Source of the DNA: a virus
DNA: 11,251 nt
Direction: 5' to 3' (one strand)
Virus genome (UHGV): UHGV-1558646
Part shown: positions 3,998-11,196 of the stretch, in pieces
Position numbering within the stretch: position 1 is the first letter of the stretch
Layout: every line of letters begins with the position of its first letter
The notes under the pieces: generated by a model
The model's input: the letters and a program-made list of their open reading frames with translations, nothing else
What the model was told of the DNA's origin: nothing
The model's database searches: none
Made by a program: the position numbers and the translations under genes

Positions 3998-4061
3998 GGT
4001 GTGCTCCTTATTTATTTACACATAACGAAAACGCCTCTAGTGAAGCGTTATTGGTATGCAT

Positions 4062-4087
4062 ATAAAAAAGCCCTCACATTGGAGGGC
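4062..4087 (-). terminator. Intrinsic terminator-like hairpin, leftward transcript (tL-like)
   Basis: Minus strand reads GCCCTC-caatgt-GAGGGC followed by TTTTTTATA. Stem at plus 4070..4075 and 4082..4087; T-run is the complement of 4064..4069. Confidence 0.5.
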
Positions 4088-4149
4088 AAAGAAGATTTCC
4101 AATAATCAGAGCAAGTCGGCTCCTGTTTAGTTACGAGCGACATTGCTCC

Positions 4150-4177
4150 GTGTATTCACTCGTTGGAATGAATACAC
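4150..4177. repeat. 9-bp inverted repeat GTGTATTCA-N10-TGAATACAC
   Basis: Perfect 9-bp arms at 4150..4158 and 4169..4177 in the intergenic region between the 207-aa gene and cIII. Possible protein-binding site or RNA hairpin. Confidence 0.4.
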
Positions 4178-4204
4178 AGTGCAGTGTTTATTCTGTTGTT
4201 TATG

Positions 4205-4231
4205 CCAAAAATAAAGGCCGATTATGCGGCC
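4205..4231 (-). terminator. Intrinsic terminator-like hairpin directly after the 207-aa gene
   Basis: Minus strand reads GGCCGCATAATCGGCC followed by TTTATTTTTGG. Stem overlaps the TAA stop at 4222..4224. Confidence 0.5.
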
Positions 4232-4845
4232 TCGGAAGGAAGTCCAATCATCTTATTCAAATCTTCTACCCGTAAAGCAGGAAGTGCTGTACTTGCTTTA
4301 TCTGCTTCTTTTGGTAGCAATTCTTTGCTTTCAGGCCAAACTTCAATAAGTCGCTTAACTGTTGTGACTGATTTCAAAGCAGCCCATACATTTGATTCGA
4401 TATCCTTTTTCTTGGCTTCAAGTTTTTGTTGCAATGCGCAGATTTCATCAAACCTTTTTGTTATTTCGTGTTCTGCGTCAAACATGCATTTATCTTTGAT
4501 CGGAGTAGGGAGCAATATATCTTTGCCGTTGCCGTCTTCCCCATATGAATGCCATCCAACCCTTCTGCCAGATACAGTCAGATAAATTGAAGTAGAACTA
4601 ACATCGTATGAGTAAAATGAACATCCCATCTTTCCAAGTTCTTCACTTATAGCTACCAACTTGGATGATAACTGATCCACTTCCTCAGTTTTCTTTTTAC
4701 CGCCAAACGCAATAACTCTGGCGTCAAGTGCAAGCTGGTTCTTTAACTTTGTTACTTCTTCAAGTTCAGTGAACACCCCGGACTTAATTAAAGCGTTACG
4801 AGCGATTTCCTCTTTCATTCTCGTAGTTAAGCGGATTGATGACAT
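4222..4845 (-). CDS. Hypothetical protein of unknown function (207 aa), AT-rich
   Basis: ATG at 4845 with SD GAGAGGAA 5 nt upstream. The ORF-track start at 4905 is a TTG overlapping the N stop. Translation starts MSSIRLTTRMKEEIARNALIKSG. No recognisable motif. Composition is visibly more AT-rich than the flanking genes. Confidence 0.6.
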   Translation of the reverse strand: MSSIRLTTRMKEEIARNALIKSGVFTELEEVTKLKNQLALDARVIAFGGKKKTEEVDQLSSKLVAISEELGKMGCSFYSYDVSSTSIYLTVSGRRVGWHSYGEDGNGKDILLPTPIKDKCMFDAEHEITKRFDEICALQQKLEAKKKDIESNVWAALKSVTTVKRLIEVWPESKELLPKEADKASTALPALRVEDLNKMIGLPSEAA

Positions 4846-4906
4846 ATTAATTCCTCTCAAATAAGTGGTTTGCTGCCTAATTTCATTTTCTGGCGACCAA
4901 CACAAG

Positions 4907-5290
4907 TCACCTCGCCGTCAGTTGTTTGTATTTCCGGTAGCCTGCCGCGTAAATGGCTACGTTTGGAAGACATACACCAGTTTCTGGTTGCTTATGTCCA
5001 AACTCATTCGCGTACACAATGGCTGCTCGCTCCAGATTGCGTCTGTATTCTTTCTGTTGCCAGATCACGTCCTGTGCCATGAACTTAATTGGCTTAGCGT
5101 CTTCTATGCGCTCAGGCGTTTCGTGAGTACCTTTAGCCTGAATCTGCGCTCTGCTTAGAGTAGGGCGGTGTAATACTTCTGAACTTATTGCTTCTTCGCG
5201 GGCCAGCACGCCGTTAGCTAATGCCTTTGCCTTTAAACGCTCACGACGACGAGAACGTGAATTGCCTTTGAACTGAGTTCTGCGTGTCAT
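4907..5290 (-). CDS. N: N-type transcription antitermination protein, P22 gene 24-like (127 aa)
   Basis: N-terminal arginine-rich motif GNSRSRRRERLKAKALA and C-terminus LPNVAIYAAGYRKYKQLTAR resemble P22 N as I recall it. ATG at 5290 with SD AGGAGG at 6-nt spacing; the ORF-track start at 5356 lacks an SD. nutL boxB lies upstream. Confidence 0.7.
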   Translation of the reverse strand: MTRRTQFKGNSRSRRRERLKAKALANGVLAREEAISSEVLHRPTLSRAQIQAKGTHETPERIEDAKPIKFMAQDVIWQQKEYRRNLERAAIVYANEFGHKQPETGVCLPNVAIYAAGYRKYKQLTAR

Positions 5291-5419
5291 ATGGAACCTC
5301 CTGATGAACTTTGGCGGTGAATACAGCCGGGCGACTAACTCCGGTCGCGTAATCATTGCAAAGCGCCTCCGCCGAGAAGGTTAGCTTCTGCATTCACCCC
5401 AAAGTTCACTTTGGTTATT

Positions 5420-5434
5420 GCGCTTTGTCAGCGC
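5420..5434 (-). promoter_or_regulatory. nutL boxB RNA hairpin (P22-type, GACAA loop)
   Basis: Minus strand reads GCGCTGACAAAGCGC: 5-bp stem, 5-nt GACAA loop. This matches the P22 boxB-left sequence as I recall it. Located about 130 nt upstream of the N start codon. Confidence 0.55.
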
Positions 5435-5460
5435 CGTAGATTCATATTCGAATCGTTGTA

Positions 5461-5481
5461 TATTCACCGCCCTGGTGAGTA
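5461..5481. promoter_or_regulatory. Operator-like 21-bp near-palindrome TATTCACC-GCCCT-GGTGAGTA in the PL region
   Basis: Arms TATTCACC and TACTCACC (7 of 8 match) with a 5-bp centre. The half-site resembles lambda operator half-sites (TATCACCGC). An exact inverted copy of TATTCACCGCC occurs at 5313..5323. Confidence 0.35.
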
Positions 5482-5511
5482 GTGCGTCCTGCTGATGACG
5501 ATAATAATGAA

Positions 5512-5542
5512 CCAATAGTTCGACATTATCAAGAACTATTGG
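5512..5542. promoter_or_regulatory. 31-bp palindrome CCAATAGTTC-N11-GAACTATTGG
   Basis: Perfect 10-bp inverted arms at 5512..5521 and 5533..5542 in the PL control region, between the moron terminator and nutL. Confidence 0.3.
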
Positions 5543-5716
5543 TACGAATTTTGGTGATTTATTAACTCTACGAAGTATGATTCTGATATATAAGGAAATT
5601 TATTTTTGAAAATGTGGCTGATGAAGGTTATGCGGCAGGGATCAGAACTGCATGGTTTAGCGAGTTACATCAATAAATACAATTGGTTATGTGTTTTTAG
5701 GTGGGGGATCGAGAGG

Positions 5717-5743
5717 CAAATAAAACCCGGCTCGGTGGCCGGG
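5717..5743 (-). terminator. Intrinsic terminator closing the repressor/moron transcript
   Basis: GC-rich stem CCCGGC / GCCGGG (5726..5731 and 5738..5743) followed on the minus strand by TTTTATTTG, about 14 nt after the TAA of the 341-aa gene. Also T-rich on the plus side. Confidence 0.55.
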
Positions 5744-5756
5744 GTTAGATTTTCTG

Positions 5757-6782
5757 TTACGGGCGAGTGATGGTTGATGCGTTTCCGTTTTCTATTACAC
5801 CTGCTCGTATCGTGTAGCTTCCCAAGATTTTTACTGTCCTGTTTTCTTTCATTGCATCAAACAGTATGGCGATCTCGTCTTTATCATCTATGAACGACGT
5901 GTCCACCGAAACAGGGAAACTGTCTTCACTAGATGGTTCGCGGCAGCTTAGGGTTATCTTTTCCGCAGTACGCTTGATTCCATCAATGACTAATTCAAGG
6001 TTTCTTTCTTCTTTTTTTGCTTTTTCGATAGGGTTCTTGATTAGTTCGTGGATTTCTTTGTTAGACAGTTCAACTGTGCTTGCGCCTGATATGACAATTT
6101 TGTCAGCATCAGACGCGCCTTTTAATACCCCTGTATACGCTTTTGCAGTATGCTCTTGAATCCCTTCGGCGCGCTCTACTGCATCTATGCCCGCTTTAGC
6201 TCTAATCGCCTCAAGCATTCCGTCCCTTAATATCGTCATGCGCTCGTTTTCTGATTTAATCTTGGCTTCTTCGAGCTTTGTTTCTTCTTGCTTGACTTCT
6301 ACTTCGGCTTTTTTCTCTAAGTATGATGTACCAACCCATGCACCGCCTATAACGGTGACAGCAAACAAGAAGCATAATGTTTTTTGGCTAGGACTCATAC
6401 CGTGTGTTACCTTCTCAAAGGCTTTACCGAATGCTTCAAAAAGCTCTGTTAATGCAGCAAGTATATCAGTACAACCTTCATTAATGGTAAAGATGATCTC
6501 TGCTTCCTCTTTATCTTTACCAGTTAACCTTTGAAGGTTGTCAGTTTTATATTTTATTAGTGTGAAAACTTTATAAATTTCAGTCTGAAATTCGCATAAA
6601 CCCTGAGCTAGAGGAGATGGAAGCGTTCCGTTGTAGCGAGAAGGATCACCATAAATCTTAAAATTCACATTATTGAAGAGGTCTAACTTGATCCTGTCGA
6701 TAGTGATCTCTTCGCCACCATCTAACCTTGCAAACAAAGATTCAATGTCGTCCAGACTTGAAACATTAATAATATCTTTCAT
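5757..6782 (-). CDS. Unknown membrane-anchored coiled-coil protein (341 aa) in the rexAB-equivalent slot; candidate exclusion/abortive-infection gene
   Basis: ORF track 5757..6782. ATG at 6782 with SD GAAGGTG. One predicted TM helix (TLCFLFAVTVIGGAWVGTSYL, about residues 136-156) followed by a K/E-rich coiled-coil. AT-rich relative to the repressor and replication genes. 80 bp downstream of the repressor stop on the same strand. Confidence 0.7.
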   Translation of the reverse strand: MKDIINVSSLDDIESLFARLDGGEEITIDRIKLDLFNNVNFKIYGDPSRYNGTLPSPLAQGLCEFQTEIYKVFTLIKYKTDNLQRLTGKDKEEAEIIFTINEGCTDILAALTELFEAFGKAFEKVTHGMSPSQKTLCFLFAVTVIGGAWVGTSYLEKKAEVEVKQEETKLEEAKIKSENERMTILRDGMLEAIRAKAGIDAVERAEGIQEHTAKAYTGVLKGASDADKIVISGASTVELSNKEIHELIKNPIEKAKKEERNLELVIDGIKRTAEKITLSCREPSSEDSFPVSVDTSFIDDKDEIAILFDAMKENRTVKILGSYTIRAGVIENGNASTITRP

Positions 6783-6862: not shown

Positions 6863-7570
6863 TCACGAACTTTTCAGCCACTCCCTTGCCTCGATGTCAT
6901 CCAGATGGCGAGATTGCTTCAGAATACCAGCCACATACTCCACCTTTGCTACTTGATGATAAGGCAACGTTATTGGCCTGTGGTCTTGGTTGATGCTTGT
7001 AAATTGGTATTCTCCATCTCTGTCATAGCCAAGAACCTTAATCATGTTGTGTCCTTCAACGGTTCTGACAAACACCTCATCACCCGGGAATACTTTGGTG
7101 TTAGGCTCAATGAGTACATATTCTCCTGATTTTATTCTGGGCCACATGCTGTCTCCTTTCACACGAAGGCCAAAGGCATCTGGATCATCGCTATAAATTT
7201 TGAGCCACCCATCGCGCTCTTCGGTCATCTCGATGGCACCATCAACACCAAGAATTGCCTCACCAACCACGCGCACTAACCCTTTTTTTAATTTGCCAAC
7301 AAATGAAAGAGTATCTTCATCATTCGCTCCATTTAACGAAGTGCCGTGCTGAAGCCAAACAACATCAACGTTTAGAAATTTCGCAAGCGCATTCATTTTT
7401 TCCTGACGCGGTAAAGACTCAGCATTAAACCATTTGCTAACGCCTTTGGACGAAAGAGAAAGGGCACGGGCTATAGCCATTCCCCTACCATGTTCATCAA
7501 GACCAGCTTCTTTACAGGCTTGCGCTAGCCGCTGGGCGAATTCTTTGCGCACTTTTTCATTCTGAACCAT
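6863..7570 (-). CDS. cI: Prophage repressor, cI-type (N-terminal HTH plus C-terminal S24 LexA-like autopeptidase, 235 aa)
   Basis: S24 signature VKGDSMWPRIKSGEYVLIEP...GDEVFV with a downstream Lys (NMIKVL). N-terminal HTH-like segment. Divergent from cro across a 78-bp operator region. Not a lambda cI or P22 c2 sequence match. Confidence 0.85.
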   Translation of the reverse strand: MVQNEKVRKEFAQRLAQACKEAGLDEHGRGMAIARALSLSSKGVSKWFNAESLPRQEKMNALAKFLNVDVVWLQHGTSLNGANDEDTLSFVGKLKKGLVRVVGEAILGVDGAIEMTEERDGWLKIYSDDPDAFGLRVKGDSMWPRIKSGEYVLIEPNTKVFPGDEVFVRTVEGHNMIKVLGYDRDGEYQFTSINQDHRPITLPYHQVAKVEYVAGILKQSRHLDDIEAREWLKSS

Positions 7571-7648
7571 GAGTACGATACTAAAGCACTTGCAAAAACT
7601 TTCAGTTCAATCATAATGCGTACTGAAAGTACGAAAAAGGATATCCCT
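7571..7648. promoter_or_regulatory. cI-cro intergenic switch: candidate PR and PRM promoters with palindromic operator sites
   Basis: Palindrome CGTACTGAAAGTACG at 7619..7633 and related inverted site AACTTTCAGTT at 7597..7607. Candidate PR -35 TTGCAA (7590..7595) and -10 CATAAT (7612..7617). Minus-strand TAGTAT -10 (7583..7578) ends about 7 nt before the cI ATG, implying a near-leaderless cI mRNA. Confidence 0.5.
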
Positions 7649-8333: not shown

Positions 8334-8477
8334 ATGCGAAAAACGCAGGAAAATAAACGCGTTAATCACCGAAAAGATGTGCTACGTGACCAGTTTTATC
8401 AGGGAGTTAATCCAGCAATAGCTGTGCCACTGAGAGAAATACTTAACAGGTACAAAACTTCGGAGAAGTCAAAATGA
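8334..8477 (+). CDS. Small basic hypothetical protein (47 aa)
   Basis: ATG at 8334 with SD GAGG at 7-nt spacing. TGA overlaps the ATG of the replication initiator (ATGA). The ORF-track version (8169..8477) overlaps cII in another frame, so the internal start is preferred. Confidence 0.4.
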   Translation: MRKTQENKRVNHRKDVLRDQFYQGVNPAIAVPLREILNRYKTSEKSK

Positions 8478-9205
8478 GCATGAATCTTATGGCTAAGGCC
8501 ATGAATATAAAGGTTGGCAACCCACTGAGAAAACTGGTTCTGATTAAACTTGCCGATAACGCCAATGATAATGGCGAATGCTGGCCTTCATATCAACATG
8601 TCGCTGACCAGTGTGAGGTGAGCAGATCGACAGTAAAAAGTCACATTAGGGCACTGGAAGAGATGGGTCTTTTGAAAAGGGAATGCAGAAGAAAAGGAGA
8701 GCTTAACCAGTCAAACGTTTTTTATCTGACGCTGGATAATGCACAACAAATCCCACCAGAATCAGGTGGGGCAGGAGCTGCCCCCAGAACCTATCACTCT
8801 TTTGAACCAGTCAATGAACCTAAAAACATTATGTTCGAACATGTCCGAACGGAGTGGGAAAAAACTCCTGACCGTCACGAAGAAACCGACAAGGCATTCG
8901 AGGAAATATTCTGGTGTGCAGGCATGCGGAAAGCCGGGAAGAAAAACGCAGCTTCAGCATTCAGAACACAGTTCAGGGAATGGCGTAAAACTACCAGGGG
9001 TACGGCAAGCGAGTTTGCCACGATGCTGGCAGAAGACATCGCATGCAGGAATGGTAAGCAGTTCGGATTCGACAGGTTGTTACCATCGAGCTACCTGAAC
9101 GGTCAACGCTGGAACGACGAGAAGCCAGAAACTATTCAACCACAATCCAAACCATCATCCGCAATCACCGTATCGAAAACTGGCTACGTGTTTTTCGACA
9201 GGTGA
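8474..9205 (+). CDS. Replication initiator / replisome organiser, O-like, with N-terminal HTH (243 aa)
   Basis: N-terminal LVLIKLADNANDNGECWPSYQHVADQCEVSRSTVKSHIRALEEMGLL resembles the HTH domain of phage replication initiators. Low-complexity linker PPESGGAGAAP. Located in the lambda O position. Confidence 0.7.
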   Translation: MSMNLMAKAMNIKVGNPLRKLVLIKLADNANDNGECWPSYQHVADQCEVSRSTVKSHIRALEEMGLLKRECRRKGELNQSNVFYLTLDNAQQIPPESGGAGAAPRTYHSFEPVNEPKNIMFEHVRTEWEKTPDRHEETDKAFEEIFWCAGMRKAGKKNAASAFRTQFREWRKTTRGTASEFATMLAEDIACRNGKQFGFDRLLPSSYLNGQRWNDEKPETIQPQSKPSSAITVSKTGYVFFDR

Positions 9206-9208
9206 ACC

Positions 9209-9316
9209 ATGAAATCCAGAATCAAATCGTTACTTATCGCTGGCTATAACCATGGCTGGCTTAGTTCTGCATTCGTTGAGTTCTGGTTTAACCGTCTCGA
9301 TCTGAGGTCAGCGTAA
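9209..9316 (+). CDS. Possible small ORF (35 aa) between the initiator and the primase
   Basis: ATG at 9209 follows AGGTGA. Translation MKSRIKSLLIAGYNHGWLSSAFVEFWFNRLDLRSA. Its TAA overlaps the primase ATG (TAATG). Below the ORF-track size cutoff. Confidence 0.3.
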   Translation: MKSRIKSLLIAGYNHGWLSSAFVEFWFNRLDLRSA

Positions 9317-11196
9317 TGACTCCAAGTGAACTGAGCGACCTGCTTTGGGCGCAGGTTGACAGGGTGGCTCCGCACCTGTTGCCAAACGGCAAGAAAGAGG
9401 GGCATGAGTGGGTTGCCGGTAACGTTAACGGTGACAAGGGAAACAGCCTTAAGGTCAACCTTAGCGGCAAGAAAAAATGGGCTGATTTCGCTGAGGGAGA
9501 CGGCGGTGACATGCTTGATTTGTGGATGGCATGTCGTGGAATTAACCTGCATCAGGCTATGCAGGAAGCGAAAGCATTTCTCGGTATCAAGGATGACGAT
9601 CACCATTTCGATGCCAGACGTGAGAAGAAATTCTCCAGACCTGATCGCAAGAAAATCGCCAGTTACGTTACCAGAACAGAATCCCATCTTGAGTACCTGC
9701 AATCGCGTGGCATATCGCCAGAAGTCGTAAAGCGCTACGAGGTTGTCAGCGGCAAGGTGTGGAATGGAGAGCGGGAACTGGATGCTCTGGTGCTTCCGTA
9801 CAAACGCGATGGTGAGTTGTTGCAGGTCAAGCGAATCAGCACTGAGCGCCCGGACGGGAAGAAAGTCATTATGGCAGAAGGTGATTGCGAACCTTGTCTG
9901 TTCGGATGGCAGGCTCTGGACGCTGGCGTGAGGGCGGTTGTACTTTGCGAAGGCGAAATTGATTGTATGAGCTATGCGCAATACGGCATCTCGGCGTTAT
10001 CCGTGCCGTTTGGTGGCGGGAAAGGCGCTAAGCAGCAGTGGATTGAGTTTGAGTATCACAACCTCGACAGGTTTGAGGAAATATTCATCTCGATGGATGT
10101 TGATGATGTTGGTCGTGAAGCCGCAAGGGAAATCGCAAGCCGACTCGGTGAACATCGTTGCCGTCTTGTTACTCTGCCGTACAAAGACATCAACGAATGC
10201 CTGATGAACGGTGTTACCGAGGATGAAATCTGGCAGTACATCGGCACGGCATCCTACTTCGATCCTGAAGAACTCTACAGCGCGCGAGAGTTTTACCAGG
10301 ACACTATCAACGCTTTCTACGGCAAGCAGCAGTATCTGTTTAATCCACCGTGGGAATCTCTGGCAGATAAATTCCAGTTCCGTGAGGCCGAGTTGACGCT
10401 GGTCAATGGTGTGAACGGTCACGGAAAAACGGAGGTTGTCGGGCATATGGCACTTGAGGCAATGCGTCAGGGTGTGAAGACGTGCATCGCGTCACTTGAG
10501 CTGAAGCCTGGTATTCTCCTTAAGCGCCTTACCCGTCAGGCGACGTGCTGCAAGATGCCGCCAGTGCTGGAAATTGACTCTGCATTTAAATTTTATGACG
10601 AAAGACTTTGGGTGTTTGGCCTGACCGGAACGGCGAAAGCCGACAGGCTGATCGAAATATTCGACTACGCTCGCCGCCGATACGGTATCCAGTTATTCAT
10701 CATCGACAGCCTGATGAAATGTGGCATAGGCGACGATGACTATAACGGGCAGAAGGCGTTTGTTGACTCGATTTGCGACTTCAAAAACAAAACAAACTCC
10801 CACGTCATTCTCGTTACTCACTCGCGAAAAGGAGACAGCGAAGAAAAACCAACCGGGAAAATGGACGTAAAAGGCTCTGGAGCGATAACAGACCTGACAG
10901 ACAACCTTTTTATCATCTGGCGTAACAAGGCTCGCGAGAGAGCGTTACAGAGAGTTCAAAGCGGTGAACAGATGTCAGAGAAGGACGAACAGCTACTGGT
11001 GTCTCCGGCATCTGTTTTGTTGCTTGAAAAACAACGTAACGGTGAAGGTTGGGAAGGTGGTATCCCGTTGTTCCTTGACGAGCAATCGCACCAGTTCCTG
11101 CAACTTGAATCAGGATCTCCATATAGCTACATCGCCAATATGCCGAAATCGGAATATGACGAGGCGTGGAGACAGGAAAACGTGACGGAGTATTAA
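9316..11196 (+). CDS. Bifunctional DNA primase (TOPRIM) / RecA-fold DnaB-like replicative helicase (626 aa)
   Basis: TOPRIM motifs VVLCEGEIDCMSYAQ (catalytic Glu) and ISMDVDDVGREA (DxD). Helicase Walker A NGVNGHGKTEV and Walker B LFIIDSLMK. SD GAGGT before the ATG at 9316. Confidence 0.85.
   Translation: MTPSELSDLLWAQVDRVAPHLLPNGKKEGHEWVAGNVNGDKGNSLKVNLSGKKKWADFAEGDGGDMLDLWMACRGINLHQAMQEAKAFLGIKDDDHHFDARREKKFSRPDRKKIASYVTRTESHLEYLQSRGISPEVVKRYEVVSGKVWNGERELDALVLPYKRDGELLQVKRISTERPDGKKVIMAEGDCEPCLFGWQALDAGVRAVVLCEGEIDCMSYAQYGISALSVPFGGGKGAKQQWIEFEYHNLDRFEEIFISMDVDDVGREAAREIASRLGEHRCRLVTLPYKDINECLMNGVTEDEIWQYIGTASYFDPEELYSAREFYQDTINAFYGKQQYLFNPPWESLADKFQFREAELTLVNGVNGHGKTEVVGHMALEAMRQGVKTCIASLELKPGILLKRLTRQATCCKMPPVLEIDSAFKFYDERLWVFGLTGTAKADRLIEIFDYARRRYGIQLFIIDSLMKCGIGDDDYNGQKAFVDSICDFKNKTNSHVILVTHSRKGDSEEKPTGKMDVKGSGAITDLTDNLFIIWRNKARERALQRVQSGEQMSEKDEQLLVSPASVLLLEKQRNGEGWEGGIPLFLDEQSHQFLQLESGSPYSYIANMPKSEYDEAWRQENVTEY

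Follow-up and report, generated by a model that had tools for sequence, protein, structure and literature searches.

The window analysed here, by which we mean the whole stretch of 11,251 nucleotides of the virus genome UHGV-1558646, is the early region of a lambdoid phage. The cI repressor gene, a gene for a 341-aa protein and the antiterminator gene N follow one another on the minus strand, while cro, cII and a replication module are encoded on the plus strand. The features that matter for the control of leftward transcription are collected in Table 1. The deduced CI protein is identical at 235/235 residues to the 933W-type CI of GQ499361.1, and the operator strings annotated in the same record were all recovered (5/5), exactly and once each, at positions 5508, 5530, 7619, 7595 and 7563. 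The identical repressor together with the five operators shows that a cognate repressor and its full operator set are present in cis.

Table 1. Features of the immunity region and of the inverted repeat, in positions of the window
Feature	Position	Strand	Remarks
N antiterminator gene	4907..5290	-	heads the pL operon; 99% identity with N of 933W; Pfam N_peptide
nutL	~5420..5486	-	annotation transferred from GQ499361.1 and AF125520.1 through a nearly identical alignment
boxB-like hairpin GCGCTGACAAAGCGC	5420..5434	-	within nutL
predicted pL -10, CATTAT	5504..5509	-	17 nt from the -35
OL1 TGAACCAATAGTTCG	5508..5522	-	TGAAC-CAATA-GTTCG; 15 bp; inside the site annotated 'OL1 repressor binding site' in GQ499361.1
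left arm ACCAATAGTTC	5511..5521	.	OL1 positions 4-14
predicted pL -35, TTGATA	5527..5532	-	inside the 'loop' of the palindrome
OL2 AGAACTATTGGTACG	5532..5546	-	AGAAC-TATTG-GTACG; 15 bp; overlaps the 'OL2 repressor binding site' of GQ499361.1 (transfers to 5530-5545)
right arm GAACTATTGGT	5533..5543	.	OL2 positions 2-12
intrinsic terminator	5726..5743	-	terminator scan; counterpart of 933W tM; ends the transcript of cI and the 341-aa gene
341-aa gene	5757..6782	-	between cI and the terminator
cI repressor gene	6863..7570	-	235 aa; HTH and Peptidase_S24 (Pfam)
OR3 TGAACCATGAGTACG	7563..7577	.	TGAAC-CATGA-GTACG; exact match to annotated 933W-type OR3
OR2 AAAACTTTCAGTTCA	7595..7609	.	AAAAC-TTTCA-GTTCA; exact match to annotated OR2
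OR1 CGTACTGAAAGTACG	7619..7633	.	CGTAC-TGAAA-GTACG; exact match to annotated OR1

A repeat search of the window revealed two 11-nt arms upstream of N that are 100% complementary and separated by an 11-nt gap (left and right arm in Table 1). The repeat is terminated by an A-A mismatch at the next outward pair, 5510/5544. The original prediction had described perfect 10-bp arms at 5512-5542, located between the terminator of the 341-aa gene and nutL; the arms are correct as far as they go, since the true perfect arms extend one further base pair on each side, and the placement between terminator and nutL is also confirmed. In 933W the terminator has its counterpart in the feature annotated 'tM; putative terminator for pM transcript', with which it aligns. 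The palindrome hence occupies the usual lambdoid place for OL and pL, with nutL on one side and the end of the cI transcript on the other.

When the complete 11.25-kb window is shuffled with its dinucleotides preserved, 13% of the shuffles contain a perfect inverted repeat of this size (arms of 11 bp or more, gap no larger than 60), a frequency that would allow the palindrome to be a functionless chance repeat. However, for the intergenic segment 5393-5756 (364 bp) the corresponding proportion is only 0.5%, and the arms overlap exactly with annotated operators. Moreover, the palindrome or its region was detected in 203 of 5426 complete E. coli genomes and in 111 phage records, with half-sites that are kept in relatives whose repressors are only 64% identical, so that a repeat generated by chance alone is hardly credible. 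The symmetry on its own is suggestive, but not compelling, evidence for a non-random element; it is the match of the arms to known operators that identifies the palindrome as non-random.

Judged from the sequence, the palindrome almost certainly represents the two adjacent CI operators OL1 (5508-5522) and OL2 (5532-5546) of a lambdoid phage with 933W-type immunity. Features named 'OL1 repressor binding site' and 'OL2 repressor binding site' are present in GQ499361.1, GQ499365.1 and EF517298.1 (phi24B), one over each arm, and transfer to 5508-5523 and 5530-5545 of the window; these GenBank features are 16 bp long and offset by 1-2 bases from the 15-bp register used here. A megablast search with the segment 5300-5800 matched 216 phage records, and the part from 5395 to 5753 shares 96-97% identity with phage 933W, its relatives and 32deltatox. 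A three-way alignment shows the 33-bp element, flanks included, to be base-for-base identical to 933W. The element is therefore already known, its exact sequence having been annotated and biochemically studied in 933W, and the earlier impression that it was not explained does not hold, because the arms are operators recorded in both the 933W literature and GenBank.

In 933W the natural sites, five in number, span 15 bp and have G at position 2 save in one OR2 half-site, and among their half-sites A4 and C5 are invariant while position 6 is T in 7/10 and C in 3/10 (PMC3317979). The 15-bp registers chosen here reproduce these published counts at positions 2, 4, 5 and 6. Both OL1 and OL2 display G-(A/T)-A-C at positions 2-5 and 2'-5' in rotational symmetry, and each operator, of the form xG(A/T)AC-N5-GT(A/T)Cx over 15 bp, would be bound by one repressor dimer. 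The element thus consists of two separate 15-bp operators, each with a dyad of its own, and is not one site with long half-sites. The proposal of a binding site for a dimeric regulator was right in two respects, as the element belongs to the control of pL and would be bound by a dimeric regulator, but the single 31-bp site with 10-bp half-sites has to be given up.

We also asked how the OL sites score against the right operators. With a matrix derived from OR1-OR3 only, in both orientations, OL1 ranks third and OL2 fifth of about 11,200 window positions (13.3 and 12.6 bits, compared with 7.2 bits for the best non-operator position), and with a matrix of all five sites OL1 becomes the top match, OL1 and OL2 reaching 16.9-17.8 bits. 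The recovery of both OL sites by the OR-only matrix places them in the same operator class as OR1-OR3 and leaves no second class. A search for OL3 with the operator matrix gave no additional site above 7.2 bits window-wide, and the interval 5547-5725 was empty. The absence of a third OL site is in agreement with the literature on 933W, for which three OR sites, two OL sites and no OL3 are described (PMC8065619, PMC5977221, PMC10742460). The OL1/OL2 sites themselves are covered by PMC3317979, PMC5977221 and PMC8065619, and dissociation constants of OL1 and OL2 for the 933W repressor are referred to in PMC3317979.

Our statements on binding are based on later open-access papers, from the same laboratory as work of 2004, and on reviews. 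The 933W operators OL1/OL2 were reportedly studied by Koudelka et al. in 2004 and by Tyler, Mills & Friedman in 2004, and further studies linked to them are said to be those of Bullwinkle & Koudelka in 2011 and 2012. Binding of CI to OL1/OL2 and repression of pL in the present phage would follow by analogy with 933W.

A promoter scan identified TTGATA-17-CATTAT (5532-5504, minus strand) as the only sigma-70-like promoter in the segment 5280-5800, with 9 of 12 hexamer positions matching the consensus. From these hexamers we infer a pL start near 5497, which leaves the palindrome upstream of the transcript. The spacer between the -35 and -10 hexamers is taken up by OL1, which also covers the two leading bases of the -10; OL2 meets the -35 at its upstream edge and overlaps it there. 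In a lysogen, CI occupying OL1 and OL2 would therefore block RNA polymerase and keep N and the leftward early genes switched off. Cro at OL1/OL2 may impose the same block during lytic growth, as suggested by analogy with other lambdoid phages.

Phage PhiR12_1 carries an annotated CDS that corresponds to a 44-aa ORF with a TTG start (5381-5515, minus strand). The ORF starts within OL1, ahead of the predicted pL start, and spans nutL. It gave no family match, and the CDS annotation is probably spurious.

The palindrome had also been proposed to form a structured RNA element in the PL leader, which could be a hairpin or a terminator/attenuator with an 11-bp stem. The minus-strand RNA does fold into the expected hairpin (-13.9 kcal/mol, z = -4.3 compared with shuffles), but a favourable fold energy is automatic for any perfect inverted repeat. 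Because the whole element lies upstream of the predicted pL start near 5497, with the -35 in the loop and the -10 at 5509-5504, it would not be part of a pL leader RNA. As for a terminator, the scan calls only 5726-5743, and the stem of the palindrome is A+T-rich with no adjacent T-run. A search of the element against Rfam returned no family match. The relatives of the phage, to which we turn now, offer a further view of the stem.

We collected 39 genomic and 80 viral loci encoding relatives of the repressor, plus phage records with 84-93% DNA identity over the region, and scanned the window and 124 loci (125 sequences altogether) for pairs of operator-like sites 24 bp apart. An OL pair with this spacing was recovered in 94 of the 125 sequences, and these fall into 37 different 51-bp blocks and 16 different OL1/OL2 combinations. 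The recovered pairs adjoin repressors that are 45-100% identical over the aligned part, or 64-100% for full-length matches; loci with full-length matches include those of Salmonella, Pectobacterium, Photorhabdus, Cedecea and Dryocola. The half-sites are kept down to a repressor identity of 64%, in Photorhabdus and Pectobacterium.

Among the recovered pairs, OL1 and OL2 alike hardly vary at positions 2-5 and 11-14. The departures are A/T swaps at position 3 or 3' and one G-to-T substitution at OL2 position 2, which is found in loci L072 and L101. A/T swaps at position 3 are tolerated or even preferred by the repressor (PMC3317979). The central five bases are variable, and in 14 of the 16 operator pairs only 7-10 of the 11 palindromic pairs are retained. 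Regarding the promoter, the TTG of the -35 is kept (as TTGATA, TTGATT, TTGCAT or TTGACC) except in Photorhabdus (TTTACA) and in locus L082 (TTAATA), and CAnnAT of the -10 is invariant in the 17 distinct variants of the family (alignment A3, columns 3, 4, 7 and 8). The original prediction had named conservation across homologous prophages as a check, and in homologous prophages and phages the element is indeed present with conserved half-sites, although the full 11/11 symmetry is often lost.

If the same variants are treated as hairpins, pairing is lost in 25 of 187 pair cells, and pair 13-39 is disrupted in 8 of the 17 variants. Double changes are seen at 4 of the 11 pairs, and the invariant pairs are those of the operator half-sites. 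Fixed half-sites combined with a broken stem are the signature of two protein-binding sites and not of a conserved stem. As the stem is, moreover, broken in the relatives, apparently without compensation, a structured RNA seems highly improbable at this position, and we retain the two operators as the explanation of the palindrome.

Another possibility is that the palindrome forms one long site, with 10-11-bp half-sites and an 11-bp gap, for a different dimeric or tetrameric regulator, as implied by the second operator class that had been suggested for it. The perfect symmetry over 33 bp exceeds what is expected from independent operators, given that two sites sampled randomly from the operator model agree at 11 or more consecutive positions in only about 0.5-0.9% of the trials. 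There is also a weak excess of double changes that preserve the mirror relation in the family alignment (12 cells versus 6.6 +/- 2.3 in shuffles). However, the 33-bp symmetry drops to 7-10 of 11 pairs in most of the diverged relatives, and when only the central five bases are tested under strict Watson-Crick pairing, significance is not reached (3.25 matches versus 2.92 +/- 0.19; reached in ~6% of permutations, uncorrected for phylogeny). Both arms are fully accounted for by sites of the OR1-OR3 class that are annotated and measured as CI sites in 933W (PMC3317979), and hence no other regulator is required. A Pfam survey of 16 of the larger ORFs of the window yielded Cro, CII and an HTH_36 protein of the replication region as the only other DNA-binding candidates. 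A separate long site is thus very unlikely, and a second operator class is contradicted by the recovery of both sites with the OR-only matrix and by their identity to the annotated OL1/OL2 of 933W.

The long symmetry can instead be understood from the relationship between the two CI operators. The reverse complement of OL1, CGAACTATTGGTTCA, equals OL2 at 12 of 15 positions, 11 of them contiguous, and this resemblance generates the palindrome with its 11-bp arms. The centres of OL1 and OL2 are 24 bp apart, which is also the distance between the centres of OR2 and OR1. The OR2/OR1 pair likewise contains an inverted repeat, with perfect 9-bp arms ACTTTCAGT (7598-7606) and ACTGAAAGT (7622-7630). 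Both promoter-proximal operator pairs are accordingly mirror images, central bases included.

Since a run of 11 is rare in random draws, the mirror likeness of OL1 and OL2 is somewhat beyond what the shared consensus would lead one to expect. The excess could be derived from an inverted duplication or common descent, or could be caused by weak selection. In Photorhabdus and in loci L072, L101 and L103 the central bases are flipped in both sites together, so that part of the symmetry is kept. Nevertheless, it appears unlikely that the mirror relation of adjacent operators, including the weakly contacted central bases, is itself under selection at OL1/OL2 and OR2/OR1. If it were, each promoter-proximal pair would constitute a 39-bp pseudo-dyad centred on the -35 region, and possible reasons would be a symmetric docking of two repressor dimers or the DNA shape around the -35.

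The arrangement described here is nearly the same as in 933W, which has the same 33-bp element and flanks, an identical repressor, the same position between tM and nutL and a two-site OL without OL3. The element itself shows no difference; the two phages differ in the cargo from cI to the terminator, which comprises stk and three small ORFs in 933W and a single gene, that for the 341-aa protein, in the present phage. In lambda, OL1 and OL2 are adjacent sites for repressor dimers, with centres 24 bp apart, placed over the -35 and spacer of pL and upstream of nutL and N. The likeness to lambda pL would consist in repression by promoter occlusion and in the same arrangement of sites. In contrast to lambda, the present sites are 15 bp and not 17 bp long, have an unrelated recognition sequence and include no OL3. 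Moreover, the cores of lambda OL1 and OL2 are in direct orientation, whereas the present OL1 and OL2 are mirror images of each other. The 933W repressor shows no pairwise cooperativity at adjacent sites (PMC3317979, PMC5977221). Within the window, the closest counterpart is the OR2-OR1 pair (7595-7633), which has the same operator class and 24-bp spacing as OL1-OL2 and is an inverted repeat as well; it controls pR and pRM, and its OR2 contains the sole non-consensus half-site (A at position 2).

As a control site of a lambdoid early promoter the element is of the textbook kind, and it carries little weight as a discovery. It does fix the immunity type of the phage as 933W-type, and the phage should therefore be homoimmune with 933W-like Stx phages. 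Induction of the 933W prophage governs the release of Shiga toxin 2. In addition, the operator match allows the predicted promoter pL to be placed precisely.

We also considered whether a mosaic or recombination boundary coincides with the palindrome. This was rejected, as homology to 933W is continuous from 5395 to 5753, which puts the breakpoints at the terminator and to the left of nutL and none at the element itself. From nutL to the start of N, 95 bp (5300-5394) have no near match in 933W, though N is 99% and the nutL/OL part 96-97% identical, and on this comparison the stretch appears to be a small replaced segment in the N leader. The interval of ~180 bp from OL2 to the terminator (5547-5725) is 96-97% conserved with 933W and contains no annotated feature there. 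A 54-aa ORF on the plus strand (5606-5770) has only a weak PHROG match (phrog_22865, E = 1e-5), and no similarity was found between it and the small CDS at the equivalent place in Salmonella phage MG40.

The 341-aa gene occupies the lysogen-expressed slot between cI and the terminator, in which lambda carries rexAB. Its product has no match in Pfam or PADLOC, and the sole family recovered is phrog_6191, which is without an assigned function. None of its 59 homologues is functionally named, and the named sources are Enterobacterales. An AlphaFold model of fair quality (pLDDT 80.8) has an alpha/beta part at the N terminus, a beta-barrel at the C terminus and long helices, and Foldseek matches in the PDB are mostly OB-fold proteins, each over ~100 columns and weak (E ~0.02). 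The gene is a candidate for an exclusion or defence gene. The name 'T2SS GspM containing protein', which is given to this product in the PhiR12 records, was unsupported by our searches.

Several other parts of the window deserve mention. The replication module is composed of the HTH_36 protein (8474-9205, plus strand) and a 626-aa Toprim/DnaB-like primase-helicase (9316-11196, plus strand), and is not of the lambda O/P type. PhiR12_1 has an otherwise identical immunity region that is followed by O and P; the different replication genes after an identical immunity region indicate mosaicism to the right of cII. On the opposite side, directly downstream of N, the minus strand encodes a 227-aa protein (4222-4905) with Nmad5 (nucleotide modification associated domain 5; E = 1e-70). 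Two imperfect inverted repeats with 22-nt arms are found downstream of the Nmad5 gene, at 4140-4187 and 4040-4077 (82% and 73% complementarity, respectively), and these may be terminators of the pL operon.
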